64,000 bases of DNA from contig JBBRLX010000005.1 in the NCBI GenBank assembly GCA_038231135.1, positions 32,001-96,000 of the forward strand. The letters are read 5' to 3'. This DNA comes from Candidatus Eiseniibacteriota bacterium. GTDB lineage: Bacteria; Eisenbacteria; RBG-16-71-46. This document shows, in pieces, positions 31,881 through 64,000 of this stretch. Numbering within the stretch: position 1 is the first letter of the stretch; each line of letters starts with the position of its first letter. The notes below the pieces were generated by a model, which saw nothing but the letters and a program-made list of their open reading frames with translations, was not told the origin of the DNA and did not search any database. The position numbers and the translations under genes are program-made.

Positions 31881-32896
31881 CCGCGACCCGCATCGTCACC
31901 CACGACGACGTGTACCGCCTGCTGCCGATGCCGGAGTGCATCGACGCGATGGACCTGGCACTCCGGAGCCTGTCCAGGGGCGACGCCGTGCTGCCGCTGC
32001 GATCGATGGTGTGGCTGCCCGACCGCACCGCGCTGCTGGGGTTGATGCCGGGCTATCTCGGCGAGCCCCGCAGCTTCGGCCTCAAGGTGGTGAGCATCGT
32101 GCCCGGCAACCACGGCACCGAATTCGATTCGCACCAGGGCGTGGTGATGCTGTTCGGCGTCGAGCACGGCGAGCCGCTGGCGGTGATCGACGCCAGCTCG
32201 ATCACCGCGATTCGCACCGCCGCCGTGAGCGGCGTGGCAACGCGGACGCTCGCGAACCCGAATGCCGGCAATCTCGCGATCCTCGGCAGCGGAGTCCAGG
32301 CGCGGAGCCACCTGGCCGCGATGCTGGCGGTGCGCCCGGTATGGCGGGTGCGGGTATGGAGCCGCAACGCCGAGCATGCGCGCGGGTTCGCCGCGGCCGA
32401 GGCCGCGCGCCACGGCATCGCGGTCGAGGTGACCGGTACCGCGGAGGCCGCGGTGCGCGGCGCGGACCTGATCTGCACCGCCACCGCCGCGCGCGAGCCG
32501 GTGCTGCACGGCGCGTGGCTCGCGCCGGGGGCCCACGTGAATGCCGTGGGCGCGTGCTTCAAGGACGGACGCGAGCTCGATGGCGCCGCCGTCGCCCACG
32601 CGCGGCTCTACGTCGACCGCCGCGAATCGGCGATGGCCGAGGCGGGCGACTTCCTGCTCGCGCGCGCCGAGGGCGCGGTCGGCGACGCGCACATCCTGGG
32701 CGAGCTGGGCGACGTGCTGTTGGGCCAGGTGCCCGGGCGCGCGGGTGCGGACGACATCACGTTGTTCGAGTCGCTCGGCATCGCGATCGAGGACCTGGCC
32801 GCGGCGCACCACATCCTGCGCCGGGCGAACGAGACCGGCACCGGCCTCGCGGTGGAGCTCGGACCGGGCCGCTCCGTTCACACCGCCCAGCCATGA
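31877..32896 (+). CDS. Ornithine cyclodeaminase / mu-crystallin family protein
   Basis: GTGA overlap; MPG, K.VS..PGN, ITAIRTAA.S, GSGVQARSH, G.HVNAVG, EAGD, F.S.G.AIED. Confidence 0.9.
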   Translation: MTATRIVTHDDVYRLLPMPECIDAMDLALRSLSRGDAVLPLRSMVWLPDRTALLGLMPGYLGEPRSFGLKVVSIVPGNHGTEFDSHQGVVMLFGVEHGEPLAVIDASSITAIRTAAVSGVATRTLANPNAGNLAILGSGVQARSHLAAMLAVRPVWRVRVWSRNAEHARGFAAAEAARHGIAVEVTGTAEAAVRGADLICTATAAREPVLHGAWLAPGAHVNAVGACFKDGRELDGAAVAHARLYVDRRESAMAEAGDFLLARAEGAVGDAHILGELGDVLLGQVPGRAGADDITLFESLGIAIEDLAAAHHILRRANETGTGLAVELGPGRSVHTAQP

Positions 32897-44662: not shown

Positions 44663-44739
44663 GCGGAAGTAGCTCAGCCCGGTAGAGCCCCACCTTGCCA
44701 AGGTGGTTGTCGGGGGTTCAAATCCCCTCTTCCGCTCCA
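44663..44739 (+). tRNA. tRNA-Gly(GCC)
   Basis: Acceptor GCGGAAG/CTTCCGC, anticodon arm CCACC-TTGCCAA-GGTGG, TTCAAAT T-loop, U discriminator, encoded CCA. Confidence 0.96.
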
Positions 44740-47645: not shown

Positions 47646-49496
47646 GTGCGATTCCCCCTGCGCTGGCGGCTGCTGCTGCTGACCGTGCTGGCCCCGGCGG
47701 TGCTCGCGCTCGGCACGTTTTGGTACCTGAGCGGCTCCGTCACCCGGCAGGTGCGCCAGGACATCGACGATTCACTGACCCGCGCCGCGCTCATGTTCGA
47801 GAAGCAGCTGTCGGAGCGGGTGGACGCGCTCGCGGTGACGGGCCGGGTGATCGCGCGCGATCCGCGATTCTTCTCCGCGGTGGCGCTGCCCGGCGGCGCG
47901 CGCAGCGCCGGTGCGCGCACCACCATGGCCGGTGTCGCGAAGGACTTCCAGCAGCTCACGCATGCGGACGTGTTCGAAGTGCTGGATCACGATGGCCGCG
48001 TGATGGCGTCCGTGGGCGGCGTGTCGACGAGCGCCGAGGGCCGCGCGAAGCTGATCGCGTCCGTCCGTCCGGGCGAGGAGGCGACGGGACTGCTGATCGA
48101 GAGTGGATCCCACTATCAGGTCGCGTGGATCCCGGTGCGGGTCGACGGCTCGCGGGCGGGCTCGCTGCTGATCGGGCTCCAAATCGGGCCCTCGCTGGCA
48201 AACGACCTCCACCTGCTCACGCGCAGCGAGGTGACGTTCGTCGCCAGCGGCGCCTGCACGGGCTCGTCGCTCCCCGACGGACCGGATCGCCAGGCGCTGA
48301 TCGCATCGCTGAACGGGGGGCCCGCGAAATCCGCCGCCGGCAGGGCCGGGGCCCCGGGCGCGGCCCAATGGGTGACGCTGGCGCGCCCGCTGCCCGGCTC
48401 GGTGGCCGGGGACGGGCAGTGGTTCGTGCTGCAGCGTTCGCTGGCCGCGGAGACGGAGTTCCTCCGCCACGCGCAGCAGGGACTGCTCGCGCTGGCGCTG
48501 GTGGCGGTCGCGATCGCGGCGCTGATCGGCGGGCTCACGGCCGAGGGCATCACGCGGCCGCTGATCCAGCTGGTGCGCGGCGCCGAGGCGATGGAGCGCG
48601 GCAACTACGAGGTGCCGATCGACAGCGGCAGCGGCGACGAGATCGGCTATCTCGGCACGCGGTTCACCGAGATGCGGGAGCACGAACGCAACTACATCGG
48701 GAAGCTCGAGAGCGTGACCCGGCTCAAGAGCCGGTTCATCAGCGTGGCGTTCCACGAGCTGGGCACGCCGCTCACGATCATCAAGGGGTGGAACGATCTG
48801 TTCGTCGAAGGCATGCTCGGGGTTCTCACGCCGGACCAGCAGAAGGCGGTGAACGGGACCCGCGAGAGCATCGAGCACATGATGCAGATGACCGAGAACG
48901 CGGAACGCCTCGCCGAGATCGAAGGCGGCCTCGAGTTGTTCCGCGACGAGCACCAGCTCGCGCTGGTGGTGGAGGAGGCGGTGACGCTGGCGTTGCGCGA
49001 CGCCCCCGGGCGCGGGCTCACGATCGAGCGCCACATCGATGCCACGCTGGGGCCCGCGAACGTCGACGGCCAGCAGCTCATGCAGGCGGTCGCGAACCTG
49101 GTGCGCAACGCGATCCGGTTCACGCCCGACGGCGGCAGGGTCGACGTCCGCGCATTCGCCGATCGCGCGGAGTTCGTGATCGAGGTCGAGGACGACGGCG
49201 ACGGTATCGCACCCGAGCTGCAGCAGGAGCTGTTCTCCGGCGCGTACGTGCAGGTGGACGCGATGCACCACCATTCGTCGAAGACGCTCGAGTACGGCTC
49301 GGCGGGGCTCGGCATCGGCCTCGCGATCGCCCGCGGCATCGTCGAGAAGCACGAGGGCAAGATCGTGGTGGAGAGCGCGCCGGGAGCCGGCAGCACGTTT
49401 TCGATCCGGATTCCGCGGCTCACGGTGGTGCGGCTGCCCGCGACTCCCGGAGCCGGCACCGCGGCCGGCGCCGCCCCGACCGCCGCCGCCGCGTAG
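47646..49496 (+). CDS. Membrane sensor histidine kinase (periplasmic sensor, HAMP, HisKA, HATPase)
   Basis: Two TM segments; ITRPL..L, DEIG.L...F, HELGTPL, NLVRNAIRFT, DDGDGI, GLGIGL, G.GSTF. Confidence 0.92.
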   Translation: MRFPLRWRLLLLTVLAPAVLALGTFWYLSGSVTRQVRQDIDDSLTRAALMFEKQLSERVDALAVTGRVIARDPRFFSAVALPGGARSAGARTTMAGVAKDFQQLTHADVFEVLDHDGRVMASVGGVSTSAEGRAKLIASVRPGEEATGLLIESGSHYQVAWIPVRVDGSRAGSLLIGLQIGPSLANDLHLLTRSEVTFVASGACTGSSLPDGPDRQALIASLNGGPAKSAAGRAGAPGAAQWVTLARPLPGSVAGDGQWFVLQRSLAAETEFLRHAQQGLLALALVAVAIAALIGGLTAEGITRPLIQLVRGAEAMERGNYEVPIDSGSGDEIGYLGTRFTEMREHERNYIGKLESVTRLKSRFISVAFHELGTPLTIIKGWNDLFVEGMLGVLTPDQQKAVNGTRESIEHMMQMTENAERLAEIEGGLELFRDEHQLALVVEEAVTLALRDAPGRGLTIERHIDATLGPANVDGQQLMQAVANLVRNAIRFTPDGGRVDVRAFADRAEFVIEVEDDGDGIAPELQQELFSGAYVQVDAMHHHSSKTLEYGSAGLGIGLAIARGIVEKHEGKIVVESAPGAGSTFSIRIPRLTVVRLPATPGAGTAAGAAPTAAAA

Positions 49497-49526: not shown

Positions 49527-52500
49527 TCAGGGAGTTACGACGAACCTTCGCACCAGACGCCGTCCTGAGGCGTCCAGGCGCGCGAAGTACAGCCCCGCGG
49601 GCACCGCCCCGCGCGACGCGGTGGCGTCCCAGCGAATCGAATAGGCGCCCGCGGCGAACGTGCCGTGCGCGAGCTCGGCGATCTCTCGGCCCTGCACGTC
49701 GATCACATCGAGCCGTACGCGGGTTTCGGCCGGCAGCGAAAAGCCGAACGTGGCGTGGCGGCGGAGCGGGTTCGGCGCCACCGGCGCCAGCGCGAGCGTG
49801 AGCGCGTTCGCTCCGACGGCGGTCGTGCCGCCGATCGCGAACGCGGAGTCGCTGAGATCGGCGGCGGTGTGTCCGGCGGCGTCGTGCGCGACGACTTCGA
49901 GGAACGCGGTCGATGTGGCGGCTCCGCTCACGACCCAGTCGTAGGAGCCCGAGTTCGGCACGCCGAGCGCGATCGTCTGGAACGGCCCGGCCGCGCCGGT
50001 GCGCGACAGCAGCAGGTCGACGGCGGTGACGGCGGCGTTGTCCGTCGCGCTCCAGGTCAGCGCGGCATGCTGGCCGAGCGTCAGCGTCTCGCCGCCCACC
50101 GGCGACACCACCGTGACGGCGGGCGCCACGGTGTCGGCGAACGTCGCTGCGATCACGTGATCGGCGGTCACGGCCGGGAACGTCCAATGGTCGGCCGCCG
50201 GCTGCGCCACGCCATCGACCACGAGCGGACCGCTCGCGAACCCGGCATCGGGCGCGATCGTTACGCCCGCGTCCTGGCCGGCCGCGAGGTGCTGGACGCC
50301 CCCGGGCGTGATCGTGCCGCCGGCGGTCGGCTCGGCCGCGACGAGGAAGCTGTCGGGCTGGCCGGTGACGAATGCGCCGAACGCGCCGAGCCAGGTCGCG
50401 GAGACGCCGGTGGCGCCGTGGCCGAGCACGAGCGCGGGCCACCACTGGGCGCCGTCGTAGCGGCGCACGACGAAGCTGTCGGACACGGCACCCGGGTCGA
50501 GATCGCCGGGTACGAATGTGAACGCGGCGTCGTAGCGGTCGAAACCGGGGCCGTCGGCCGCCAGGTCCCAATGGCGATGGACGTCGCGCGTGGTGTCGAG
50601 CAGCGCGGCCGCCACCGCCGGGTGTTCCGTGCCCCGCGTGGCGGCGGTGACGTCGAACGGCTGTGTGACGTGGGCGAACGTGAGCGCCACCGGTGCTGCG
50701 GTGCCCGCGTCGCCGATCTCGAACGCCGCCGGCACGGCGGAGCCGGTGTCGACGCGTTTGCGCAGTGCGCCGACGACCCAGCCGCCGGTGGCCGCCACGG
50801 TGCCCGGCACGAACAGCGTATCGGCGCCGGCGTCGAGGTTGCCGGCCGCGATCTCGAGGGTACCGCTCACGGTGTGGAGGAGTCCCGGGCCGCCGAGCGT
50901 CACGCCCAGGGGATTCTCGATGCGCAGCGTGGTCCCGGTCGCGGCGAGCGTGGCTCCGGACGCGAAGGACAGCTGCTGGGGCGCCGTGCCCGCGAGCCGC
51001 AGGGTGATCGTTCCGGGGCCGGCCAGCAGCGGCTGCACGGCGGCGGTGCTGGTCGAGACGACGTTGCCGAGCACGGTCAGCGTGCCCGCGCGCGACGCGG
51101 TGCCGGTGATGCCGCCGCCCGACACCGCCGGGTTCACGGGCACGCGCGACAGGTCGCCCGTTACGGTGAGGTTCGTCACGCCGGAATCGCTGAGCACGAT
51201 CGTGCCGCCCGCGGCGCCGGAGCCGGCGGCGCCGCCGAGCGTCAGGCTGCGCAGCGTGAGCGTACCGGTGCCAGGGGTGCCGAACAGCAGCCTGCCGCTC
51301 GAATTCGCGAAGTTCACGATGACGTCGCCCAGCTGCGTGCCGTCGACGGCGATCAGCCTGGAGCCCGCGGCGCCCGCGAACGCGAGCGCGCCGCCGGGAT
51401 CGGACTGCCACGTGCCGTTGACGAGCACGTGCGCCGGTCCCGCGGCCGCGAGCGTGATCCGGTGGCCGCCGTCGGCCAGCGTGACGCCGCCCGCGACACG
51501 CACCGCGCCGTGAGCGAGGTTCGAACCGAAACTGGCGGTGAGCGTGAGGTCGCCGTCGAGGGTCTTGGTGCCCGAACCCGATACCGCGAGCGCCGCCGCC
51601 GGCGGATGATTTGCCGCGCTGACGTTCTGATCGCCCGCGGCGTCGTATTCGACGGTGCTGCCGAGCGCGTACGTCGCGCCGCCGGCGGCCGCGATCACGC
51701 CGCCGAGCCCGGCGGGGTCGTCGATCGCGGTGGCGAGAGTGCCCGTGGACGCGACGGCGAGCGCGCCGCCGCCGCCGATGCCGAACCCGGCGCATTCGAG
51801 CCGGCCGGCCACGTTCAGCGTGCGCCCGGCGCCGACCGCCACGTTGTCCGCCAGCGTGCAGACGGCGCCGGACGCCACGGTCAGGTTCATTTCGATCGGC
51901 GACAGCGACAGCGGCGTGAGCGGCGTGCGGGAGTCGCGGCGGGCGGGCGCCAGCGTGGCGCCGCCGAGCGTGCCCGTGCCGGTCAGCAAGATCGTGAGAC
52001 TGCCGAGGTTCGCGCCGCCGGTGAGGCCGCCATACTCGAAGCTGCCACCCACCGACAGCGTGGTCGGTGTCGCGGCGGTGAGCTCGAGCCGGGCCGTGCC
52101 CGCCACCGTGAGGTCGTGCGCCACCTGGAACGCGCCACCCGCCGCGAGCCGCTTGGGATTCGCCACGCCGCCGTTCTCGCACACGAGGTTCCAGTGCGTG
52201 ACGCCGCCGCCGACCGTCTGCGTGCCGGTGCCGGCCAGCCGCGTCGTGCCGGTTGCGGCAGTGAACGTGCCGGACGTCACCGTGAACGAGCCGTCGAGCA
52301 CCAGCGAACCCGTGCCGAGGTCGATGGCGCCGCCGGCGAGGGTGAACGTACCGTTCGCGACGAGCTGGCCCGGCGCGCCGAGCGACACGGCGCCCCCGGT
52401 CAGCGTGATCGCTCCGTGGGCGGTGAAGCTGCCCCCGGTGATGGCGAGGGTGCCGCCCTGGATCGCGGTCGCGCCGGTCACCGACACGCTGCCGGCGCCG

Positions 52501-55500
52501 AACGTCACGCTGCCGGCCGTCTGCGTGTAGCCCTGACTCACCGCGATCGCCCCGCCGCCCACCGAGAGCAGCGCGTTCGCGCCCACGTCGAGGTTGCGGC
52601 ACGCGAACGCGCCGGTGACGGCGATCGTCGCGGGCGCGGCCGGCGCCAGCAGGACGTCGTCGTTCGGCCCCGGCACGCCATCGGGGCTCCAGTTCGCGGC
52701 GTCGCCCCACAACGTGGTGCCGGCGCCGCCGTCCCACACGATCGTGGGTGGGTCGAAGCCGATGGTGAAGAACGACTGGCCGGGCACCACGTCCTGGGTG
52801 GCTGTGACGGTGCCCGCGGCCGGAACGCCGGTCGTGCTGCCGCCGAGCGACACATAGCTGCCCGCCAGTGTGGCGCTCTGCGCCACGCGCGGGCTCACCA
52901 GATCGGCCACGCCGTCGTCGGATCCGAACGCGATGCCGACGCGCGCGCCGGGGTTGAGGTTCGCGGTGTTGGTCAGCGTCCACGAATGGACGTGATCGAG
53001 CGATTCGAGCGGGGACACCGGCGCGCCGCCGGTGTTGGTCGTCGTCAGCTCGGCGACGACCGTGCGCGACACGCCGCCGGTCGCGACCTGCGCCAGCGTC
53101 ACCGGCCGCAGCTCGCCATCGCGCCCGATCGGGAACGTACGCGTGACGGGGCTCGAGGTGTTGAATTCGATGCCGAGCGGGCCGCTGACGTAGCTGATCG
53201 AGCTGCCGGTCGCCACCGCCGCGGTGTTCGCGAGCGTCACGAGGTTGGACGTCGACGTCACCAGCGTGCCCTGCGACAGCGTCAGCGAGCCTGTGATCGC
53301 GAGCGCGCCGCCGGACAGCGTCACCGCGTGAGGATTGTCGATGCTCAGGTTCGCGACCGTGCGGCCGGCGGGGATCTCGGCCCCGGTGGTGCGCGCCACG
53401 CCCTCGGTGCCGTACACCAGCGTGTAGCCGCCGCTGCCGATGTTGAACGCCGGCGCCACGTCGAACGCGCCACCCGCGATGTTGAGGAACGGGCGGCCGA
53501 TCTGGACGGTGGACGAGCTGCCGCCGCCGCTGCCGAGCGTGATCTTGTAGGCGTGCGTCACGGTGCCGCGCGTCAGGTCCACGCGCCCCGCGACCAGCGT
53601 GGGAATCGTCACCCCCAGCGTGATGCCGGCGGGATTGTCGAATACCAGCCGCTCGATCGGGCCCGTGAGCACGCCGTTGCCCGCGTAGGTCTGCGCCGTG
53701 ACGCCGTCGAACACCAGCCAGCTGCCGGGCAGCGTGCCCAGGATCGCGCCGTCGTTCTGCAACGCGGCGCCCTGCTGCTGGAACGTGAAGCCGTTCAGAT
53801 CGAGCACCGCGCCGAACGGGATCGTGGTGCCGAGGAACGCCTGGGTCACGGGCGAGGCGGCGAAGATCGTCGCGGTCTTGTTGTTCGTCTGGTTGTCGAT
53901 CAGGACGTTGGGCATGGCGCCCGCGATGCGGAAATTGAACCGCGTGGTCGTGGTGCTGCGGCCCAGCATCAGGGTGCCGCCGGTGATCTCGAGCGATTCC
54001 GATGCGACGCGCCAGTCGACCGGCGTGGCCGCGGAGCTGGCCTGGCGCAGCGTGATCGTGCCGCCCGTCATGCGGAACGAGCTGATCGCGTTGCTGAGAT
54101 CGAACGAGCCGAGGTTCGAGCCGCCGTTGCCGGAATTGGCCACCGTGACGGCGCCACCCGACTGGCTCCACGACACCGCGTTCGAGGTCGCAATCCGGCC
54201 CGACACGACCAGCGAACCCGCCAGGATGTCGTAAACAGCACCCGGGCCGGAGCCGAGCGAATTGCCGGAGCCGGTGCCGACGTTCAACGTGCCCTGCGCC
54301 AGCCGCAGGGTGCCGTTCATGGTCGCAGACGCCGCCTGCGCGACGACCGTCAGGTTGGGGTCGTTGAGCCACAGCCCGGACGTCGCGGGCACAACCCACG
54401 CGGGCGCGGCGAACAGCCGGTTGGCGAGCGTGACCGTGCTCGAGATCTCGAGCATGCCGTTCGCCAGCGTGAGAAAGCCGGCGGCGTCGCCGTTCGAGCC
54501 CTGCACGGTGAACGTGCTCGTCAGGAGCTCGAGCACCGAGCCTTGCCCGGAGCCCTTGTCCACCGTGACCGCGCGCACGTCGGTGGTGGCACCCGAGCCG
54601 GAGAATTGGCTGTTGTCGGGGCCGGTGAACGTGATCGCGGCGCCGGCGGTGTTGCTGTTGGTGCTGAAGTCGAGCGTGCCGTTGTTGAGCAGCGTGCCGC
54701 CCAGGGTCAGCTGGTGGGCCACGACGGCGCCCGATGCGGCGGACGCGAACGTGCCGCCGGCGGAGATGGTTACGTTCGAGGTCACGGTCAGCGCGCGGGG
54801 CGTGACGGGCTCGTACAGCAACGTGCCCGCGACGGTGAGCGAGAACGCCGTCGCGCCGGTGTCGATCGTGACGGTGCGCCCGGCGGGGATCGTGACGTTG
54901 TCCGCCGAGGTGGGCACCACGCCGCCCGGCCATGGGGCGTTCACCGTGGTCGAGCTCCAGTTGCCGCTGCCTGCCGCGGTGATCGTGCCCGGGGGCGGGG
55001 TGGCCTGGCTGCCCGTGAGCGGGACCGACGGCGCGGCGGCCTCGTTGGCGGCCGTGATGCGGAAACTGTAGGTGACGCCGGGCGACAGGCCGGTCTGCGC
55101 CAGCGAGTACGTGAAGCCGGCCCCCGGGGTGCTCACCGACGGCACGGTCCCGATCGGCGTGAAGTTGACCCCGTCGCTGGAGCGGTACACGGTGAAGAAC
55201 GTCTCGTTCGTCGAATTGTCGGTCCACTGGACGGTCATGCCCGACTGCGACACCGACGGGAACGTGATCGACACCGGGGCAGCGGGGACGGCGGCGTATT
55301 GCGGCGTGAACGTCACCTGGCTCGCCGTCGCCGGCACCTGGGGCAGTGTGTTGCGTTCGAGGTTGTTGAACGTCGCCGTGTTCGGCGACTGCTGGGCCAG
55401 CAGCTCGGAGGGCAGCGGGGTCATCCCCATCGTGAGCCCGTTGATGCCGCAGCTGTAGGTATAGGCCGGGGCCCCGGGGGTCATGGTGCCGTAGACGAAG

Positions 55501-56066
55501 TCGATGGCGCCCGTCGCCTCATGGAGTCTCACCTGGAAATTGAGGTCGGGACTGGTGTCGAACGGCGTCTCGAGCCCAATCCACTCCACGGTCAGTACGC
55601 GGCTGCCGGGGGCGCCGGTGGTCTGATACTTGACGCTGGACGCCAGCGAGGCGGTGGTGCCCGGATTGCCCTGGGTGCTCAGGTTGTCGTACATCGGAGC
55701 CAGCATCAGCGGGCTGGGAGCGAGGTTCGAGGTGAACGCCGTGTTGCTCGACCCGTAGTCGCTGCTGCCGCCACCCGAGGCGCCCGACGACGACAGATCC
55801 ATGAAGCCGTTCGTCGATGCGCTGAACGAGGTGGACGGCTGGCCCATGTAGTAGAACGTGAATCCGATCGGGGCCGCGATGCTCCGGTTGTCGTCGGTAT
55901 TCGCGCCGTTACGCCATGCCGGCAGGCTAGACCCGGTGGTGGCTATCGAAGCGTAAGTGACACCGGTGGTGCGGGTTACCGGAGCATAGTTCGCGACGCT
56001 CTGGGCGAGTGCGGCGTCGGTTCCGATCACGAGGGCGAGCAGCGCAATGACAGCGGGCCGAATCAT
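49527..56066 (-). CDS. 2179-aa secreted surface protein with FN3, beta-rich repeats and T9SS-type/FlgD-like C-terminal domain
   Basis: Signal peptide ending ALA|Q; FN3 (W.DNS.NE..F.VYRS.DG, GL.PG.TY.FRI.A.N); tail PNP....F.L.....VRL...D..GR....AG.Y...WD....AGLYF.RL. Confidence 0.85.
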   Translation of the reverse strand: MIRPAVIALLALVIGTDAALAQSVANYAPVTRTTGVTYASIATTGSSLPAWRNGANTDDNRSIAAPIGFTFYYMGQPSTSFSASTNGFMDLSSSGASGGGSSDYGSSNTAFTSNLAPSPLMLAPMYDNLSTQGNPGTTASLASSVKYQTTGAPGSRVLTVEWIGLETPFDTSPDLNFQVRLHEATGAIDFVYGTMTPGAPAYTYSCGINGLTMGMTPLPSELLAQQSPNTATFNNLERNTLPQVPATASQVTFTPQYAAVPAAPVSITFPSVSQSGMTVQWTDNSTNETFFTVYRSSDGVNFTPIGTVPSVSTPGAGFTYSLAQTGLSPGVTYSFRITAANEAAAPSVPLTGSQATPPPGTITAAGSGNWSSTTVNAPWPGGVVPTSADNVTIPAGRTVTIDTGATAFSLTVAGTLLYEPVTPRALTVTSNVTISAGGTFASAASGAVVAHQLTLGGTLLNNGTLDFSTNSNTAGAAITFTGPDNSQFSGSGATTDVRAVTVDKGSGQGSVLELLTSTFTVQGSNGDAAGFLTLANGMLEISSTVTLANRLFAAPAWVVPATSGLWLNDPNLTVVAQAASATMNGTLRLAQGTLNVGTGSGNSLGSGPGAVYDILAGSLVVSGRIATSNAVSWSQSGGAVTVANSGNGGSNLGSFDLSNAISSFRMTGGTITLRQASSAATPVDWRVASESLEITGGTLMLGRSTTTTRFNFRIAGAMPNVLIDNQTNNKTATIFAASPVTQAFLGTTIPFGAVLDLNGFTFQQQGAALQNDGAILGTLPGSWLVFDGVTAQTYAGNGVLTGPIERLVFDNPAGITLGVTIPTLVAGRVDLTRGTVTHAYKITLGSGGGSSSTVQIGRPFLNIAGGAFDVAPAFNIGSGGYTLVYGTEGVARTTGAEIPAGRTVANLSIDNPHAVTLSGGALAITGSLTLSQGTLVTSTSNLVTLANTAAVATGSSISYVSGPLGIEFNTSSPVTRTFPIGRDGELRPVTLAQVATGGVSRTVVAELTTTNTGGAPVSPLESLDHVHSWTLTNTANLNPGARVGIAFGSDDGVADLVSPRVAQSATLAGSYVSLGGSTTGVPAAGTVTATQDVVPGQSFFTIGFDPPTIVWDGGAGTTLWGDAANWSPDGVPGPNDDVLLAPAAPATIAVTGAFACRNLDVGANALLSVGGGAIAVSQGYTQTAGSVTFGAGSVSVTGATAIQGGTLAITGGSFTAHGAITLTGGAVSLGAPGQLVANGTFTLAGGAIDLGTGSLVLDGSFTVTSGTFTAATGTTRLAGTGTQTVGGGVTHWNLVCENGGVANPKRLAAGGAFQVAHDLTVAGTARLELTAATPTTLSVGGSFEYGGLTGGANLGSLTILLTGTGTLGGATLAPARRDSRTPLTPLSLSPIEMNLTVASGAVCTLADNVAVGAGRTLNVAGRLECAGFGIGGGGALAVASTGTLATAIDDPAGLGGVIAAAGGATYALGSTVEYDAAGDQNVSAANHPPAAALAVSGSGTKTLDGDLTLTASFGSNLAHGAVRVAGGVTLADGGHRITLAAAGPAHVLVNGTWQSDPGGALAFAGAAGSRLIAVDGTQLGDVIVNFANSSGRLLFGTPGTGTLTLRSLTLGGAAGSGAAGGTIVLSDSGVTNLTVTGDLSRVPVNPAVSGGGITGTASRAGTLTVLGNVVSTSTAAVQPLLAGPGTITLRLAGTAPQQLSFASGATLAATGTTLRIENPLGVTLGGPGLLHTVSGTLEIAAGNLDAGADTLFVPGTVAATGGWVVGALRKRVDTGSAVPAAFEIGDAGTAAPVALTFAHVTQPFDVTAATRGTEHPAVAAALLDTTRDVHRHWDLAADGPGFDRYDAAFTFVPGDLDPGAVSDSFVVRRYDGAQWWPALVLGHGATGVSATWLGAFGAFVTGQPDSFLVAAEPTAGGTITPGGVQHLAAGQDAGVTIAPDAGFASGPLVVDGVAQPAADHWTFPAVTADHVIAATFADTVAPAVTVVSPVGGETLTLGQHAALTWSATDNAAVTAVDLLLSRTGAAGPFQTIALGVPNSGSYDWVVSGAATSTAFLEVVAHDAAGHTAADLSDSAFAIGGTTAVGANALTLALAPVAPNPLRRHATFGFSLPAETRVRLDVIDVQGREIAELAHGTFAAGAYSIRWDATASRGAVPAGLYFARLDASGRRLVRRFVVTP

Positions 56067-56445: not shown

Positions 56446-57648
56446 ATGAGAAGCAGGACATCATGGTCATGGGTGACGTGTCTCGTCGCGGCCGGATGCG
56501 CGGGGGGCGCCTCCCTGGCCCACGCCATCACCTGGGCACCATACCTGAGCCTGGACGGGCGGTATGACGACAACGTATTGCATCGGCCCCAAGGGGCCGA
56601 TGACGTGGTCAGTGTGGCGACCCCGGGACTCAAGATTTTCAACCGCGATCCGATCACGTCCTATGACCTGGACGGCAGCAGCGGTTTCACCTCGTATTCC
56701 AGGACCCACTTGAAGACTTCGCGACGTGACATTGCCACGCTCGACCTGACGCACAACCCGGGCTATTTTGAGAAGCTCGACCTCAACGCGTGGTACCAGC
56801 GTTCGGCGGATCCAATCGACTTCCGCCAGGGCACGGTCACCCAGCGCGGGGACGTCAGCAGCGCCGGCGGGACGGGCGAGTTGTCGTTGTTTCGGGTGGG
56901 GGCGGCGGCGGATGTGCGCCGCTGGGATTACGCCGACGGACAGTTGGCCGATGGCCGGTCGACGAACGTGACGGGCCGGCTGTTTCCGGTGAACACCCGG
57001 AGCACGCGATTCGCGCTCGAAGCGCGGCGGAGTGAATTGGAAGTGGGAGACGGGGTGGCGCTCCAGGCTGGTTACGAGACCGCATCATTCAGGCGGCAGC
57101 ATTCCGACAACTTCTGGTCGGAGCTCGAGGCCGGCCGTGTGGAGGCGCGATTTCGCGACGGCACCCGCAAGGTGCATTCCGCGATCGCCGCGTCGTTCAG
57201 CCGGTCGAGCGGAGGCGCGAGGACGCCGGTCACCCTGTCGGTCCGGGTCGCCGACGACATCGCGACCACCGTCGATGCCGGGCTCACGGGCCGGGGCGCC
57301 GGCCGGTCCCTGGGGCTCCGCTACGAGACGCGACTCGATGCCGACGGTGGTCTCTACCGCGTGCCCACGCTCAGCCGGCGCGGGACGCTCGACGCCAGCG
57401 ACACGCTCGGCGGCCGGCTGGTGATCGACGCGAACGGCAGCTTTGCCCGCATCCGTGCGTTCCACGGGAGCGGGCCGGGAGTCGACCAATGGCGCGCGGA
57501 AGCCGGAATCTCGAAGCCGATCGGCCCGTGGCTCACGGCGCGGGTCGCCTACGACTTCCTGCGCCAGGATGTGCCGCTCCCGGGCAGCGACAGCAAGTTC
57601 GATCGAAGCCGTTACAGCATCGGGTTCACGCTGGCCCCCGCGCAATGA
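56446..57648 (+). CDS. Outer-membrane beta-barrel associated with polysaccharide export
   Basis: Signal peptide; YDDNV and D.....TPGL N-terminal pattern; amphipathic strands; first gene of the EPS cluster. Confidence 0.7.
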   Translation: MRSRTSWSWVTCLVAAGCAGGASLAHAITWAPYLSLDGRYDDNVLHRPQGADDVVSVATPGLKIFNRDPITSYDLDGSSGFTSYSRTHLKTSRRDIATLDLTHNPGYFEKLDLNAWYQRSADPIDFRQGTVTQRGDVSSAGGTGELSLFRVGAAADVRRWDYADGQLADGRSTNVTGRLFPVNTRSTRFALEARRSELEVGDGVALQAGYETASFRRQHSDNFWSELEAGRVEARFRDGTRKVHSAIAASFSRSSGGARTPVTLSVRVADDIATTVDAGLTGRGAGRSLGLRYETRLDADGGLYRVPTLSRRGTLDASDTLGGRLVIDANGSFARIRAFHGSGPGVDQWRAEAGISKPIGPWLTARVAYDFLRQDVPLPGSDSKFDRSRYSIGFTLAPAQ

Positions 57649-57730
57649 CGGGCACCGACATGACCGCTCGCATCATCCTCAGGACCGCAGCAACCTCGCC
57701 GCCCGAAGCCGCGACGGAAGGAGCCGTGAA

Positions 57731-59026
57731 GTGATCCAGGCAAGACAGGCAGTCTACGCGGGTGCGCTGGGGCTCTTGGTGCTGCTGGCCGGCTGCGCCG
57801 GTGCCCCCGTGCGCAGGACGAACACGCGTCCCGAGGCGATCATCGTGTCGCCGAAGGACGGTTCGACGGTCATGGCCGGAGAGTCGGTGGCACTGGCCGC
57901 AGACGCGCGCGACCAGCAGGAACCGGCCGCGCGGCTCCAGTACCAGTGGGACGTCGACGCGATCCGGGCGGACCACAGCCGCCGCCGGGTGCTGAGTCTG
58001 CGGGGGATCAAGACCGCGTTCGAGCCGCCCACGACGACCGTGGATCACTACGAAGTGCGGCTGATCGTCACCGATTCCGGCATGCTGCGCGACACCGTGC
58101 ACGTGCGGCTCGCCGCGATCCCGCGGCCGGCGAAGCCGGTGGCGAGCGCGACCGCGTCCCGCAGTGCCACGACTCCCGTCGCACCCCGGATCGGCAATCA
58201 CACCGCGCCGGAGAAGCCGTCGCATACGGCGAAGGCTCCCGTCCGCACCGCGTCCGCCGGTTCGAAGCCAAAGGGGAGCGGCCCCGCGCCGGCAGCCACC
58301 GCCTCCGCGGACGGCGGCCACACCGTCTCGAGCCCGACCGCGCAGCCGTCCCTGGCGGCTCGCAGCGCCACCGCGGTCCAGGTCCCGCCGCCCGCGACCG
58401 TCGACGCCGCGCCGCCGCCGGCGACCACGACCGCGGCCAGCCCGGCATCGAGCCGGGACAGCGGAGCCGCCAAGCCGAATCCGCCCTCGCCGCCGCCGGT
58501 CGCGCCGCAGACGCAGCCGGCTCCGGACGAGGCGTCCTATCCGCTCGGTCCCGGCGACGAAGTCCACGTCGCGATCTATGCCGGCGGCGAGAAGCAGGAG
58601 GATTTTTCCGGGAACGTGGCGCCGTCGGGCACGCTGACGAGCCCGCTGATCGGCGAGATCCCGGTGTCCGGGCTCACCGCATCGGAGGTGTCCAACCGGA
58701 TTCGCGAGATCCTCGCCCGCGACTACTTCGTGAATCCGCAGGTGATGGTGAGCGTCGCGTCGTTCGCCCGCAAGGTGTACGTGTCGGGCGAAGTGCGCAA
58801 TCCCGGTGGCTACTCGGTCGCGACCGGGCTGACGGTGATGAGCGTGTGCACGCTGGCCGGTGGCTTCACCGACTTCGCGTCGCTCAAGAGTGTGAAGCTG
58901 ATCCGCACCGAGAACGGCAGGACGCGGACGATCGATATCGACCTTTCCAAGGTGCGTCGCGGTAAAGCGCCGGACCTGGCCGTCATGGCGGGCGACCGCA
59001 TCGACGTGCCTCACCGCCGCTACTAG
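57731..59026 (+). CDS. Polysaccharide export OPX protein (Poly_export + SLBB) with N-terminal Ig/PKD-like domain
   Basis: Lipobox LLAGC; Y.LGPGD.V, V...G....PLIG...V.GLT, Y..NPQV.V, V.GEV.NPG.Y, AGGFT.FA, GD.I.VP. Confidence 0.85.
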   Translation: MIQARQAVYAGALGLLVLLAGCAGAPVRRTNTRPEAIIVSPKDGSTVMAGESVALAADARDQQEPAARLQYQWDVDAIRADHSRRRVLSLRGIKTAFEPPTTTVDHYEVRLIVTDSGMLRDTVHVRLAAIPRPAKPVASATASRSATTPVAPRIGNHTAPEKPSHTAKAPVRTASAGSKPKGSGPAPAATASADGGHTVSSPTAQPSLAARSATAVQVPPPATVDAAPPPATTTAASPASSRDSGAAKPNPPSPPPVAPQTQPAPDEASYPLGPGDEVHVAIYAGGEKQEDFSGNVAPSGTLTSPLIGEIPVSGLTASEVSNRIREILARDYFVNPQVMVSVASFARKVYVSGEVRNPGGYSVATGLTVMSVCTLAGGFTDFASLKSVKLIRTENGRTRTIDIDLSKVRRGKAPDLAVMAGDRIDVPHRRY

Positions 59027-59044: not shown

Positions 59045-60373
59045 ATGGCCAAACCTTCGGAGATGGACCTGAGAGACTACGGCCGCATTCTCGTGCGGCG
59101 GAAGTGGTGGGTGCTGAGTTCGTTGCTGGGGGCGCTGGTGCTCGCGTTCGTGCTGAACACCGTCACGGCGCCGGTGTACCGGGCGACCGTGCGCATCCAG
59201 ATCTCCCGTGAGCCCTCGCGTTCGCTGCTGACCGGCGCGGAGATCGAGAGTCCCAGTGCCCAGTCCGACAACCTCGCGCTGTTCACCGCGGCCGAGCTGA
59301 TCACGAACCGCAAGCTGATGGCGCGCGCCGTGAGCTCGCTGCGGCAGCGCGGCGTGCTGACCGGCGACGAGGGCACGGCCCAGTCCTGGTTGGGGCGGCT
59401 GCTGCGCGGCGTCCCGGCGTCCGCGGGCACGATCGAAGCCAGCGACACCACCGGTACTCCGGTGTCGAACGACGAGGTGGACTGGCTGCTGTCGAACATC
59501 AACGTCGAACCGGTGCGCGACACCCGGCTCGTGAACATTCACGTCGAGCTGTCGAATCCGCGCTCGGCCGAGAAGGTCGCGAACACCGTGGCCGACTTGT
59601 TCGTGCGCTACCAGGCGGAGACGCACTCGGCGGGATCGTCGAGCATGGTGACGTACCTCACGAGCCAGCTCCAGGACGTGCGCGCGAACCTCGCGCAGTC
59701 CGAGCAGGCGTCGGCGTTCGTGAAGGCACGCAGCGACCGGGTCGCGGTCCAGGCGCGTCTCGACCAGCTGCGCCAGGCGCAGGAGTCGCTCGACCTCGAT
59801 CATCTGACCATTCAGACGCCCGCGATCGACGCGTTGCGCAAGCAGCTCGCCGATTCCGAGAGCGAGCTCGCGAAGGCGCGCCAGATCTACAAGGACCGCC
59901 ATCCGCGGCTGGTGGCGCTCGAGACCGAGAACGCGTCGATCCGCAGCAGCATCAGGAACGAGCTGGCGACCGTGATGGCGCAGGTGCGCGGCGAGCTGGT
60001 CACCGCCAGCGCGGCCGAGCGCAGCGTGGCGGGTGTCCCGGCGACGCTCAGCAGCCGCAACCCGGCGACGCTCGAGAGCGACGTCGCGAACAATCGTGAC
60101 CTGTACAACGCGCTGCTCACCAAGCTCAAGGAGGCCGAGATCAGCGGCCAGGCGCACGGCCCGCTGGTCGAGGTCGTGGAGCCGGCGGCCGCGCAGCCCG
60201 ATCCGGTGCGCCCGCGCAAGCTGATGAACTTCATCGTGTGTCTGTTCGCAGGCGGCGTCATCGGCACCGGCCTCGCATTCCTGCGTGAATACCTGCGCCG
60301 CACCATCCGCACGCCGCAGGACGTCGACGAGCACCTCCAGCTGCCCGTTCTGGGCCTCATCCCGAAGGCGTGA
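59045..60373 (+). CDS. Polysaccharide co-polymerase (Wzc N-terminal / GumC-like, no fused kinase)
   Basis: DLRDY..IL.RRKW, PVYRAT, Y...HP, P..PV.P, second TM, TIRTP.DV...L.LPVLG.IP. Confidence 0.88.
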
Positions 60374-61518
60374 CCATGGACACTGCGGCGTTTCAACCCC
60401 TGGCTTCCGCGATGCTGCCGTTCCTGCAGAAGGGCGTCAGCAAGATCATCATCACCAGCAGCGGCCCCGGCGAGGGCAAGTCGACCGTCACCGCGAATCT
60501 CGGCCGCGCACTCGCGCGCTCCGGCCGGCTCAGCGTGCTGCTGGTCGACACCGACCCGTACAAGCCGGCGTTGCACAAGCGGTTCGGCGTCGAGAACCGC
60601 CGCGGCCTCGGCAACCTGCTGAGCGAGATCTACGGAATCGACCTCGCGCGCGAGAATCCCAACCAGTTCGGCATCGGCGACTGGGTCGAGCTGCTCAGGG
60701 CGCAGTCCCGCACGGGCACGCTGCTGATCCGCCAGGCCAACGACGAGTTCCAGATCGTGTTCCACCGCGGCCGCATCACCAGCCTGAGCGGCGGTTCGCG
60801 CGACGAGACCGGCCGCATCGGCCAGCTGCTGGTGCAGGACGGCCGCATCACGAACGAGCAGCGCGACGTCGCGCTCAAGGTGCAGAAGGAGGGCCAGCGC
60901 CGCATCGGCGAGGTGCTGCGCGGCCTCGGCTACGTGGGCAACGCCGATCTCGACGCCGCACTCGAGACGCAGCTCCGCGACTGCCTGCACCGCATCGTCA
61001 CGCTGCAGCGCCCGACGTATCACTTCGCGGAGACCGCGCAGGCCTACCTGCCGAATCCCGCGGCCTGGCAGGGCGACGACGACGGTTCCTCGATCGACAC
61101 GTTCATCAACGGGCGGTTCGGCGAGTACCTCAAGCACCCGTTCCTGTCGAGCCAGATCCCGAGCTACCTGACCGACACGGGCATGGACAACCTCAAGATC
61201 CTCACCACCGGCACGGTGACGTTCGATCTCGCGGACCGGCCGTTCGCGATCCTGGCCGAACGGCTGTCGCGGTCCTACGACGTCATTCTCATGGATTGCG
61301 CCCCGGTCGCGGTCACGAGCCCCACCGGCGCGCTCACCTCGGTCGCACACGGCGTGCTGCTCGTCGTGAAGGCCGAGGGCTACGATCTCCGCATCGTTCA
61401 GCAGGCGAAGGAGCAGCTCACCCGGTCCGGCGCGAATCTGCTGGGCGTGGTGCTGAACCAGGTCGACATCCGCCACGACGAAACGTTGTCCTACTACTAT
61501 GGAGCCTATCGACGCTGA
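60370..61518 (+). CDS. BY-kinase (CpsD/CapB type) with inserted DUF4388-like domain and MshEN motif
   Basis: Walker [11 protein letters not shown], Walker A' LVDTD...P, Walker B ILMDCAP, LGVVLN, Tyr tail YYYGAY; about 180-aa insert. Confidence 0.85.
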
Positions 61519-62741
61519 TGGAACGACTGACCGAAAAGCCCGGGGCCGCTCCCAGGATGGTAGCCGGTGAGCCGCCGAAGATCCGCGACACGTTCCTGCC
61601 GTTCGCCCTGCCACTGATCGGCGAGGAGGAGATCGCAGGCGTCGTCATGTGCCTGCGCTCCGGCTGGCTCACCACCGGACAGAAGGTGCGGGAGTTCGAG
61701 CAGGAATTCGCCACGTGGGCGGGCTCGAAACACGCGATCGCGGTCAACTCGGCGACGTCCGGCCTGCACCTGGCGCTCGAAGCGCTGGGCGTGGGACCCG
61801 GCGACGAGGTCATCACCACGCCCATGACGTTCACCGCCACCGCGGCGGTGGTCGAACACCTGGGCGGTGTGCCGGTGCTGGTCGATTGCGAGCCCGACAC
61901 GCTCAACATCGATCCGCGCCTGATCGAGGCGAAGATCACCCCGCGCACCAAGGCGATCATGCCGGTGCACTTCTCCGGGCAGTCCGCCGACATGGACGCG
62001 ATCATGGCGATCGCGCACGAACACGGCATCCGCGTGGTGGAGGACGCGGCGCACGCGATCCCCACGGCGTGGAAGGGACGCCGCATCGGCTCGATCGGCG
62101 ACATCACGGTGTTCAGCTTCTACGCCACGAAGAACCTCACCACCGGCGAGGGCGGCATGATCACGACCGACGACGACGCGCTCGCCGAGCGCATGCGGCT
62201 GATGTGCCTGCACGGCATGAGCCGCGACGCGTGGAAGCGCTACACGCAGGCCGGCGCGTGGTCCTACGAGATCCTCGCGCCGGGCTTCAAGTACAACCTG
62301 ACCGACATCGCCGCGGCGATCGGCATCCCGCAGCTGCGTCACGCGGCCGAGTACCACGCGCGGCGGGCCTCGATCGCGGCGCGCTACGACGCGGCGCTCG
62401 GCAAGCTCGCCGGCGTGCGCATTCCCACCACGCGCGACGCCCAGGAGCACGGCTGGCATCTGTACGTGATGCAGGTGCAGCACGACAAGCTCACGATCGA
62501 CCGGGACGAGTTCATCCAGCAGCTCGTGGCGCTCAACATCGGCGTCTCGGTGCACTTCATCCCGCTCCACCTGCATCCCTACTGGCGTGACCGCTACGGT
62601 TACAAGCCGGAGGACTTCCCCGCGGCCTACGCAGCCTTCCAGCGCATCATCTCGCTGCCGATCTACGCGAAGATGAGCGACCGCGACGTGCAGGATGTGA
62701 TCGACGCAGTCACCTGGATCGCCACCCGCTACCGGAAATGA
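61518..62741 (+). CDS. DegT/DnrJ/EryC1/StrS family sugar aminotransferase
   Basis: [51 protein letters not shown]. Confidence 0.93.
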
Positions 62742-64000
62742 AACGTCTGTTCGACATCGTCGTCGCGGCGGTGGGAATCCTGTTCCTGTCGCCGGTGATG
62801 GCGGTCGTCGCACTGCTCATCAAGCTCGAAGGCGACGGTCCCGTGCTGTTCCGGCAGCAGCGGGCCGGCCGCCGCATGAAGCCGTTCGACATCCTCAAGT
62901 TCCGCACGATGGTGACGAACGCGCCCGCGCTGGGACCCGGCGTGACGATCGGCAACGACCGCCGCATCACCCGCGCCGGCGGCGTTCTGCGCAAGACCAA
63001 GCTCGACGAGCTGCCGCAGCTGTTCAACGTGCTGCGCGGCGAGATGAGCTTCGTCGGCCCGCGGCCCGAGCTGCCGCGCTACGTCGCGCTGTACCCCGCG
63101 GAGTTCAAGGAAGTGCTGAGCGTGCGGCCCGGCATCACCGACATCGCGTCGATCGTCTACCGTGATGAGTCGGGCATCCTCGCGCGCTCGGCAGACCCCG
63201 AGGCCTACTACGAATCCGTCGTGCTCCCCGACAAGATCCGCATGGCCCGCGAGTACGTGCGCGCGTCGTCGCTGTGGTTCGACGTCAAGCTGATCTTCAC
63301 CACGCTCACGGTCCTGCTGTATCCGCGCCGGACCGCCGAGCGGGTCGTCGACCGCCTCGGCCGCCAGCGGGTGCCGCTCTCGATCGCCGTGCACGCGGCC
63401 GCCGCCGTGCTCGCGAGCGCCCTGGCCTACGCGGTGCGGTTCGACGGCCGCGCGCCGGCGTCCGAATGGCACCGGTTCTCAAGCCTGCTGCCGTGGCTCG
63501 TCGCGGCACGGCTCCTGGGGTTCCTGCCGGCCGGCGTGTACCGCAGCCTGTGGCGCTACTCGGATGCCCGCGACCTCGAGCGCACGGCGCTGGGCGTGGC
63601 GCTGGGCTCCGGCCTGTTCACGCTCGCGCTCCGCGTGATCCCCGGCGGCGCGGGAACCTCGACGGCGGTGCTGGTGCTGGACGCGCTGCTGTGCCTCGCA
63701 CTGCTCGGCGGCGTGCGGTTCGCGCGCCGCATGATGAGCCGGCTGCGCAACGAGGTGCCGCGCACGCGCCGCGCGCTGCTCGTTGCGACCGGCGACGTCG
63801 CCGACCGCGTGCTGGGCGGCATCGCCGGCGACCCGCTGTCGGGCTGCCACGTGATCGGCGTGCTCGAGGACGACGCGTCGCGCACCGGCGCCACCCTGCA
63901 CGGCGTGCCGGTGCTCGGCGCCGCATCCGACCTCGAGGCCATGATCAAGCGCGAGCAGCCCGACGAGATCCTGATCGCGGGCGGCTCGCCGCAGGCGGTG
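62738..64000 (+). CDS. Phosphoglycosyl transferase (PglC-like) fused to a CapD/PglF-like region (3' truncated by window)
   Basis: [44 protein letters not shown]; then [17 protein letters not shown]...G..LHGVPVLG with no stop. Confidence 0.85.

Follow-up and report, generated by a model that had tools for sequence, protein, structure and literature searches.

A BY-kinase-type protein with a PATAN domain and nested MshEN-type motif inside its P-loop domain: a candidate c-di-GMP receptor in a Wzx/Wzy polysaccharide operon

Can a second messenger act directly on a Wzx/Wzy polysaccharide pathway through its tyrosine kinase? The question is raised by one gene in a 64,000-nucleotide stretch of Candidatus Eiseniibacteriota DNA (assembly GCA_038231135.1, contig JBBRLX010000005.1, forward-strand positions 32,001 to 96,000; the whole stretch is called the window). 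The gene encodes a protein of the bacterial tyrosine kinase (BY-kinase) type, whose catalytic domain contains a PATAN domain with a nested motif of the MshEN type, which binds cyclic di-GMP (c-di-GMP) in other proteins. Direct activation by c-di-GMP is established for synthase-type systems (cellulose, alginate), and Wzx/Wzy pathways are mostly known as transcriptionally controlled. If true, the commonest polysaccharide pathway would receive second-messenger input directly, through a receptor in its co-polymerase kinase, and the PATAN helical insertion would acquire a function. Judged from sequence and predicted structure, the architecture is real, conserved, and apparently undescribed, a variant of an already predicted link between c-di-GMP and kinase. 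Binding of c-di-GMP by the query protein is probable, and a regulatory effect on polysaccharide export through the insert is slightly favoured. The direction of such an effect (polymer up or down) is not readable from the sequence.

Architecture of the kinase-type protein and its insert

The gene and its parts are listed below. Counts over close homologs refer to the 120 that were listed of the 448 matches to a word search, and all 120 contain PF14332.

60376..61518 (+), stand-alone BY-kinase-type protein (F-type, CapB-like) with internal insert, 380 aa; TIGR01007 117 bits, cut-off 108.05
60376..60420 (+), helix α2 without EX2RX2R, reads A-x2-Q-x2-A by alignment; helix 3-18 in the model
60463..60486 (+), Walker A GPGEGKST; Lys in 119/120 homologs
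60538..60567 (+), Walker A' DxD; both Asp in 120/120, conserved Arg (CapB R81) replaced by Tyr
60622..61152 (+), insert of ~177 aa in place of a short loop (Wzc K-12 ~587-590, loop L-α5), from alignments to CapAB and Wzc
60664..61044 (+), DUF4388/PATAN domain; PF14332, aa 99-225, 47.1 bits, cut-off 25
60814..60972 (+), MshEN-type motif nested in PATAN; motif 1 60814-60885, spacer 60886-60900, motif 2 60901-60972
61285..61305 (+), Walker B ILMDCAP (DxxP); Asp in 117/118
61492..61509 (+), C-terminal tyrosine cluster YYYGAY; Tyr376 in 118/120, Tyr380 in 112/120

Translation probably starts with the ATG at 60376, where the 380-aa database form begins. The GTG at 60370, from which the original prediction ran the gene to 61518, overlaps the stop of the upstream polysaccharide co-polymerase (PCP) gene; the predicted reading frame and its translation stand, and only the start moves. 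Residue numbers are counted here from the GTG at 60370, and those of the structure model are two lower.

In phmmer comparisons with S. aureus CapAB, each kinase half forms its own alignment; residue 84 pairs with 142 and residue 267 with 152. The 182 query residues thus correspond to 9 in CapB, indicating an insert of about 175 aa between Walker A' and Walker B. This is where the original prediction had placed an insert of about 180 aa, although its bounds (60631-61170) shift to about 60622-61152. The G+C content at third codon positions of the insert (0.95) is like that of its flanks (0.93 and 0.89), and hundreds of homologs have the same layout. An assembly artefact is therefore ruled out, and a recent insertion is likewise rejected.

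The PATAN identity of the insert, proposed earlier from a few residues, is borne out by the profile scan, as is the nested motif. NF053729, the profile of the c-di-GMP motif, matches aa 149-201 with 44.6 bits (cut-off 38) over 53/53 positions, and the spacing is exactly 24+5+24. The motif agrees with the MshEN consensus at 19 of 22 positions, and among 20,000 shuffled versions of the protein the highest agreement is 15. The departures are three arginines, at MshE positions 19, 25, and 44, rather than the two noted originally; of these, position 25 alone is a ligand contact.

The AlphaFold2 model (83-sequence alignment) has a mean predicted local distance difference test score (pLDDT) of 86.1 and a predicted template modelling score (pTM) of 0.81. 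In the model, both kinase halves close into a single BY-kinase fold across the insert. Foldseek ranks CapAB, Wzc, and VpsO at the top, and VIA-align superimposes the model on Wzc (3LA6) with a Z of 26.2 and a root-mean-square deviation (rmsd) of 2.1 Å over 202 residues. The motif is predicted to form the expected MshEN four-helix bundle (helices 148-154, 160-173, 177-183, and 189-208 in model numbering), which matches MshE–c-di-GMP (5HTL) with a Z of 11.2 and an rmsd of 1.6 Å over 59 residues at 36% identity. In an alignment through Wzc, the insert adjoins I592 of loop L-α5, a loop that moves with α4 between open and closed states in simulations of Wzc (PMC11206214).

The protein has the TIGR01007 match, the Walker A lysine, DxD, the Walker B DxxP, the tyrosine cluster (two to five tail tyrosines in 118 of the 120 close homologs), the adjacent PCP, and the P-loop fold of a BY-kinase, and lacks the Walker A' arginine and the EX2RX2R motif. 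With one MshEN ligand contact also altered, we therefore class the protein as BY-kinase-type and the motif as MshEN-type, a canonical member of neither family.

A search for the same architecture in other genomes shows it to be widespread, in split and fused forms. NF053729 and TIGR01007 are both matched by 83/83 aligned homologs (E ≤ 0.001). A profile search of 50%-identity representatives yields 144 new proteins, of which 83 have kinase halves more than 120 residues apart. Removal of two mis-sorted ordinary kinases leaves 81 distant members, a few with shortened inserts; 34 of the 81 exceed 700 aa, the size of a fused Wzc-like protein. With a fused protein as query, 44 more fused members appear, some of which are named Syntrophobacteraceae, Desulfobacteraceae, or Deltaproteobacteria, and matching Atlas clusters lie in Eiseniibacteriota and Thermodesulfobacteriota. 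The named neighbours of the query are mostly Candidatus Eisenbacteria. Six of 40 related genomes have a full-length match besides the genome of the query; G026, among the 40, is without one. A metagenome scan with the single protein gives two full relatives only, and no record in the plasmid collection covers 80% of the protein. At L027:9977-10633, the homolog match ends at residue 234, and the gene is perhaps broken or split.

On the question of a single origin of the insert, a kinase-core tree (174 rows, quick search, SH-aLRT support only) needs eight label changes. Well-supported branches force two of them, one being a secondary loss.

Ligand-site residues and candidate ligands

The ligand contacts of MshEN are R9, L10, G11, L25, L29, and Q32 in the first motif and R38, L39, G40, L54, L58, and Q61 in the second (Wang et al. 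2016, PMC5013675). In PilF, measurable binding requires Q32, R38, and Q61, and high affinity requires G40 (PMC12002112). The query keeps R9, G11, Q32, R38, G40, and Q61, together with five of the six hydrophobic cluster residues, the exception being L25, which is Arg. The Gua2 cluster (L10/L54/L58) reads I/L/L, and each of its positions is hydrophobic in 120/120 close homologs. Among the same 120, G11 is kept in 119, Q32 in 107, and G40, L58, and Q61 in 120 each. Departures from the consensus are compatible with binding in PilF GSPII-C, a c-di-GMP binder that has Lys at 19 and Pro at 38 (PMC11731258).

For comparison, 29 non-kinase DUF4388 loci from related genomes served as controls, of which, one left-out locus aside, 28 gave the domain; the controls are mutually related and hence not independent. 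They contain the same bundle in degenerate form, with both glycines in 10 of 28. G11, G40, Q32, and Q61 are all kept in 107/120 close homologs versus 0/28 controls. Among 15 representatives below 60% identity, the contact positions have a mean conservation of 0.83, versus 0.49 at other non-core motif positions. The query clade has the best-kept site among the groups examined, in a soluble protein of 380 aa. Two non-kinase families were observed separately. One is lineage-wide (G000 C7:32690-33160; loci L094-L123), its helical insertion being an MshEN-like bundle from which both RLG motifs have disappeared; the second keeps the glycines and has lost Q61.

Several points weigh against binding. 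The Gua1 cluster (L25/L29/L39) fails at L25, a position that is hydrophobic in 16/120 close homologs and Arg or Lys in 90/120 and in 12 of the 15 representatives. In MshE, mutation of any single conserved hydrophobic residue lowers the affinity more than 10-fold, and I19R is one of the substitutions given for XpsE, a non-binder (PMC5013675). In full-length PilF, even a perfect consensus does not restore binding to GSPII-A, the site being blocked by a neighbouring subdomain (PMC12002112). For a helical bundle, a Z of 11.2 is within the range that the tool deems common; part of the weight is therefore borne by the sequence match, which also retrieves 5HTL. The conservation contrast separates binding from folding only partly. 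The strict four-residue site is found in 13/81 distant and 4/44 fused members, rising to 37/81 and 23/44 when Asn or His is allowed. In addition, two members of the query clade, P0133 and P0134, have lost the MshEN motif or the whole insert; they are natural deletion controls.

L25R and the occlusion precedent of GSPII-A would also fit a different explanation, namely an insert acting as a PATAN module for protein interaction or localisation, with a bundle that is structural or a non-binding remnant and an Arg-rich surface that binds a partner or the phosphorylated tail. The degenerate bundles of the non-kinase DUF4388 domains are consistent with such a module, as are a 22-row clade that keeps the insert and has lost the Gly pair in 20 rows, and the invariance of PATAN residues outside the motif (G101, G103, D104, W105, E107, and Q112). 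However, the controls indicate that Gly11, Gly40, Gln32, and Gln61 are dispensable for the fold, yet close homologs keep all four at the frequency given above. We regard the purely structural explanation as unlikely, while giving it more weight than any other alternative considered here, and retain c-di-GMP binding as the probable function of the motif.

A second candidate ligand is raised by the cyclases of the genome. GGDEF is matched six times in the query genome, with canonical residues in at least one case, and is present in 10/10 carriers of the architecture. In one of the proteins of the query genome, a GAF-like–GGDEF protein (GGDEF at G000 C4:100606-101076, +), Ser, Asn, and Tyr lie 26, 35, and 70 residues before the GGDEF Asp. 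GacA, a Hypr cyclase, has its Ser348, Asn339, and Tyr304 at the same spacings (PMC6456294). With this full Hypr signature, the protein is a predicted synthase of 3',3'-cGAMP (cyclic GMP-AMP). The signature recurs in 7/10 other carriers (loci L124-L131, L135; also L017:808-1887), in a survey of one GGDEF stretch per carrier handle (two for G016) in which two handles are perhaps one genome. This suggests cGAMP signalling in the query lineage.

The insert of the query clade might accordingly be imagined as tuned to 3',3'-cGAMP, or as reading both dinucleotides. An asymmetric ligand would fit the pairing of one perfect half-site with an altered one (L25R/K). The Arg or Lys at position 25 is conserved; the query genome has four MshEN motifs over the cut-off and three DUF4388 domains, and the other three MshEN domains are hydrophobic at this position. 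Moreover, MshEN_N binds cGAMP weakly, with a dissociation constant of 330 μM (PMC5013675). However, the backbone amides of Gly11 and Gly40 set the guanine specificity and clash with adenine (PMC5013675), and the near-invariance of Gly11 therefore leads us to rate cGAMP as an improbable ligand. In addition, Hypr activity is predicted from sequence only, and the Hypr-signature gene is genetically unlinked to the operon in the query genome.

Octamer contacts and the proposed mechanism

In CapB, the octamer is held by E23, R26, R29, R81, and E133 (PMC2422856; review PMC9800525). Among 75 canonical kinases, these residues are kept in 75, 74, 75, 70, and 75, respectively. Among the 120 close homologs, E23 and R26 are kept in 23 each and R29 and R81 in none; the position of E133 is Asp or Glu. 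R81, the arginine of the Walker A' motif (φ4-DXDXR), is Tyr in the query. The PPNP loop is remodelled, being kept in 3/120. By alignment, the query clade has thus lost EX2RX2R and the Walker A' arginine and keeps the catalytic residues and the tyrosine tail, a combination that is new here and makes the query a natural kinase without the octamer motif. VpsO was considered as another natural kinase of this kind and rejected, as the chain in 6U1Q was engineered to carry three Ala mutations. S. pneumoniae CpsD, which naturally lacks these residues, is a published exception (PMC2422856).

Three observations count against control of export through this kinase. The octamer contacts are largely gone in the query clade, and the PCP tail has no aromatic residue at the position of CapA F221 in 17/17 loci; consequently, canonical kinase cycling is not assured. 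Third, the search for a phosphatase gene in the operon found none, with no match to CpsB and two unlinked matches to the LMW-PTP family.

The same losses could mean that the protein binds c-di-GMP and is no longer an octamer-cycling kinase. It would then serve the PCP as a scaffold or a ligand-gated ATPase, with some resemblance to the pseudokinase EcpK. Besides the counts for E23, R26, R29, and R81 and the remodelled PPNP loop, the consequence of motif loss elsewhere favours this: in Wzc (PMC11206214) and in VpsO, loss of EX2RX2R abolishes phosphorylation and function in vivo. However, the Walker motifs and tyrosine tail of the query clade are invariant, whereas EcpK has neither (PMC12004946). 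Motif mutants of CapAB (PMC2422856) and VpsO also retain autophosphorylation in vitro, and CpsD dispenses with the residues naturally. We consider such a role quite doubtful.

The mechanism that we slightly favour is regulation of a kinase that is still active. The C-terminal tail of the neighbouring PCP would be the docking site for the kinase, which would autophosphorylate its own tyrosine tail. A single c-di-GMP would span both half-sites, with an affinity that L25R probably makes lower than in MshE. Given that the insert lies in loop L-α5, which is mobile with α4 in the Wzc simulations, the bound ligand would bias the open/closed equilibrium of the kinase or its self-association. In a clade without the EX2RX2R contacts, the insert may also supply part of the control of assembly.

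A stronger version, in which the insert replaced EX2RX2R as the assembly switch and c-di-GMP, or 3',3'-cGAMP from the Hypr-signature cyclase, toggles the co-polymerase cycle and export, is speculative and in our view rather unlikely. None of the 58 rows in the clade of the query (SH-aLRT 100) has an intact octamer motif. Across the family, the octamer motif is intact in 3/42 with both glycines kept versus 18/29 with the glycines lost (Fisher p 7.6e-7, raw table). However, five phylogenetically independent pairs give no support for co-evolution of site and octamer motif (p = 1). We have therefore dropped the proposal that an intact MshEN site co-evolves with loss of the octamer motif, treating the association as a clade-level pattern only, and accordingly offer as a conjecture that the insert has replaced the interface.

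Operon context and comparison with known systems

The kinase gene was predicted to belong to Wzy-dependent polysaccharide synthesis, and its neighbours agree. The following genes surround it in the window.

56446..57648 (+), probable outer-membrane β-barrel; BBP2_2 21.4 bits, below the cut-off of 23.7 (the L001 homolog passes with 27.8)
57626..59026 (+), OPX polysaccharide export protein; Poly_export and SLBB over cut-off
59045..60373 (+), PCP, the membrane partner; Wzz and GNVR over cut-off, stop overlapping the kinase start region
61518..62741 (+), DegT/DnrJ sugar aminotransferase; PF01041 462 bits, start overlapping the kinase stop (TGATG)
62738..64000 (+), priming phosphoglycosyltransferase–dehydratase fusion, running off the window
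44663..44736 (+), tRNA gene (Rfam)

Beyond the window, Wzy-like, GT4 (glycosyltransferase), and Wzx genes follow, completing a Wzx/Wzy operon with OPX, PCP, and priming transferase. Of 21 insert-bearing loci fetched, 17 were scanned, and in 17/17 the gene upstream of the kinase is a Wzz/GNVR PCP; all six candidates submitted from insert-bearing loci contain a Wzy_C gene. Rfam finds only the one tRNA in the window and five loci. A search of the query genome for RF01051 gives no match, and control genomes likewise gave none.

Several features of the neighbourhood are recorded in their own right. The β-barrel and OPX genes (56446-59026, +) resemble a composite OPX/β-barrel translocon, the OPX protein having an Ig-like domain and a long Pro/Ala linker. 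An RtcB-family open reading frame (PF01139, ~155 bits) lies within the polysaccharide operon at L093:6942-9584, downstream of the window, and at L014:7341-8807; the one in L093 sits between the Wzx flippase and a CDP-alcohol phosphatidyltransferase. Two secreted-looking proteins of about 2,100 aa flank the operon (window 49527-56066, −; L093:10379-16753, +), the former with fn3, G8, Ig, and FlgD-Ig matches. Upstream of the operon is a HAMP histidine kinase (window 47646-49496, +), with a counterpart at L001:1773-3587.

The closest published precedent is EpsG of Methylobacillus, a proposed chain-length tyrosine kinase given as 'MshEN_N - AAA_31' in Supplementary Table 4 of Wang et al. 2016 and its footnote; Supplementary Table 6 of that paper contains no binding data for EpsG (PMC5013675). 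EpsG (TIGR03029) and the query are both stand-alone BY-kinase-type proteins in an exopolysaccharide locus, with an MshEN motif (MshEN_N in EpsG) and predicted control by c-di-GMP. They differ in that the motif of EpsG precedes the kinase and has no PATAN, whereas that of the query is nested in PATAN inside the P-loop domain, and the query scores 79.3 bits against TIGR03029, below the cut-off of 313.8. The pairing of MshEN with a BY-kinase has therefore been in print, as a prediction, since 2016, and the original claim of novelty was too strong; only the internal arrangement is apparently undescribed. An internal PATAN–MshEN insert was found neither in Supplementary Table 4 (PMC5013675) nor in the literature searched, whose coverage is partial and may miss mentions in tables. 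M. xanthus SopA was considered as a PATAN–MshEN precedent and rejected. New from this window are a split form whose site is the best kept, an octamer interface that has been lost, and a cyclase bearing the Hypr signature. Three further BY-kinases, P0257, P0262, and P0264, have MshEN directly before α2, as in EpsG; one is fused and Wzc-like, and they score below the TIGR03029 cut-off.

Compared with CapAB, Wzc/Etk (E. coli), VpsO (V. cholerae), and BceF (Burkholderia), the query shares the fold (Z 23-26, rmsd 1.8-2.4 Å for the predicted model), Walker A, A', and B, the tyrosine tail, and a PCP partner. It differs from them in the L-α5 insert of about 175 aa, in the loss of EX2RX2R, the Walker A' arginine, and the PPNP loop, and in having no linked phosphatase identified.

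With V. cholerae MshEN (5HTL) and T. thermophilus PilF GSPII-B/C, the query shares the 24+5+24 spacing, the four-helix bundle, and R9/G11/Q32/R38/G40/Q61. It differs in L25R, I19R, a third Arg at 44, and the lack of an MshEN_C subdomain, and its motif lies in PATAN within a kinase rather than at the N-terminus of a pilus ATPase. As a PATAN/DUF4388 (PF14332) domain, the insert scores over the Pfam cut-off and has the helical insertion, but most non-kinase copies examined have a degenerate bundle, whereas the motif of the query is near-complete.

The pseudokinases EcpK of M. xanthus and HfsB of Caulobacter are likewise stand-alone partners of a kinase-less PCP in diderms with a non-canonical cycle; EcpK has lost the Walker motifs and the tyrosine tail, and the query keeps both (PMC12004946). 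MshEN is thus placed in BY-kinases in two ways, N-terminal as in EpsG and internal as in the query, which adds interest to the 2016 prediction.

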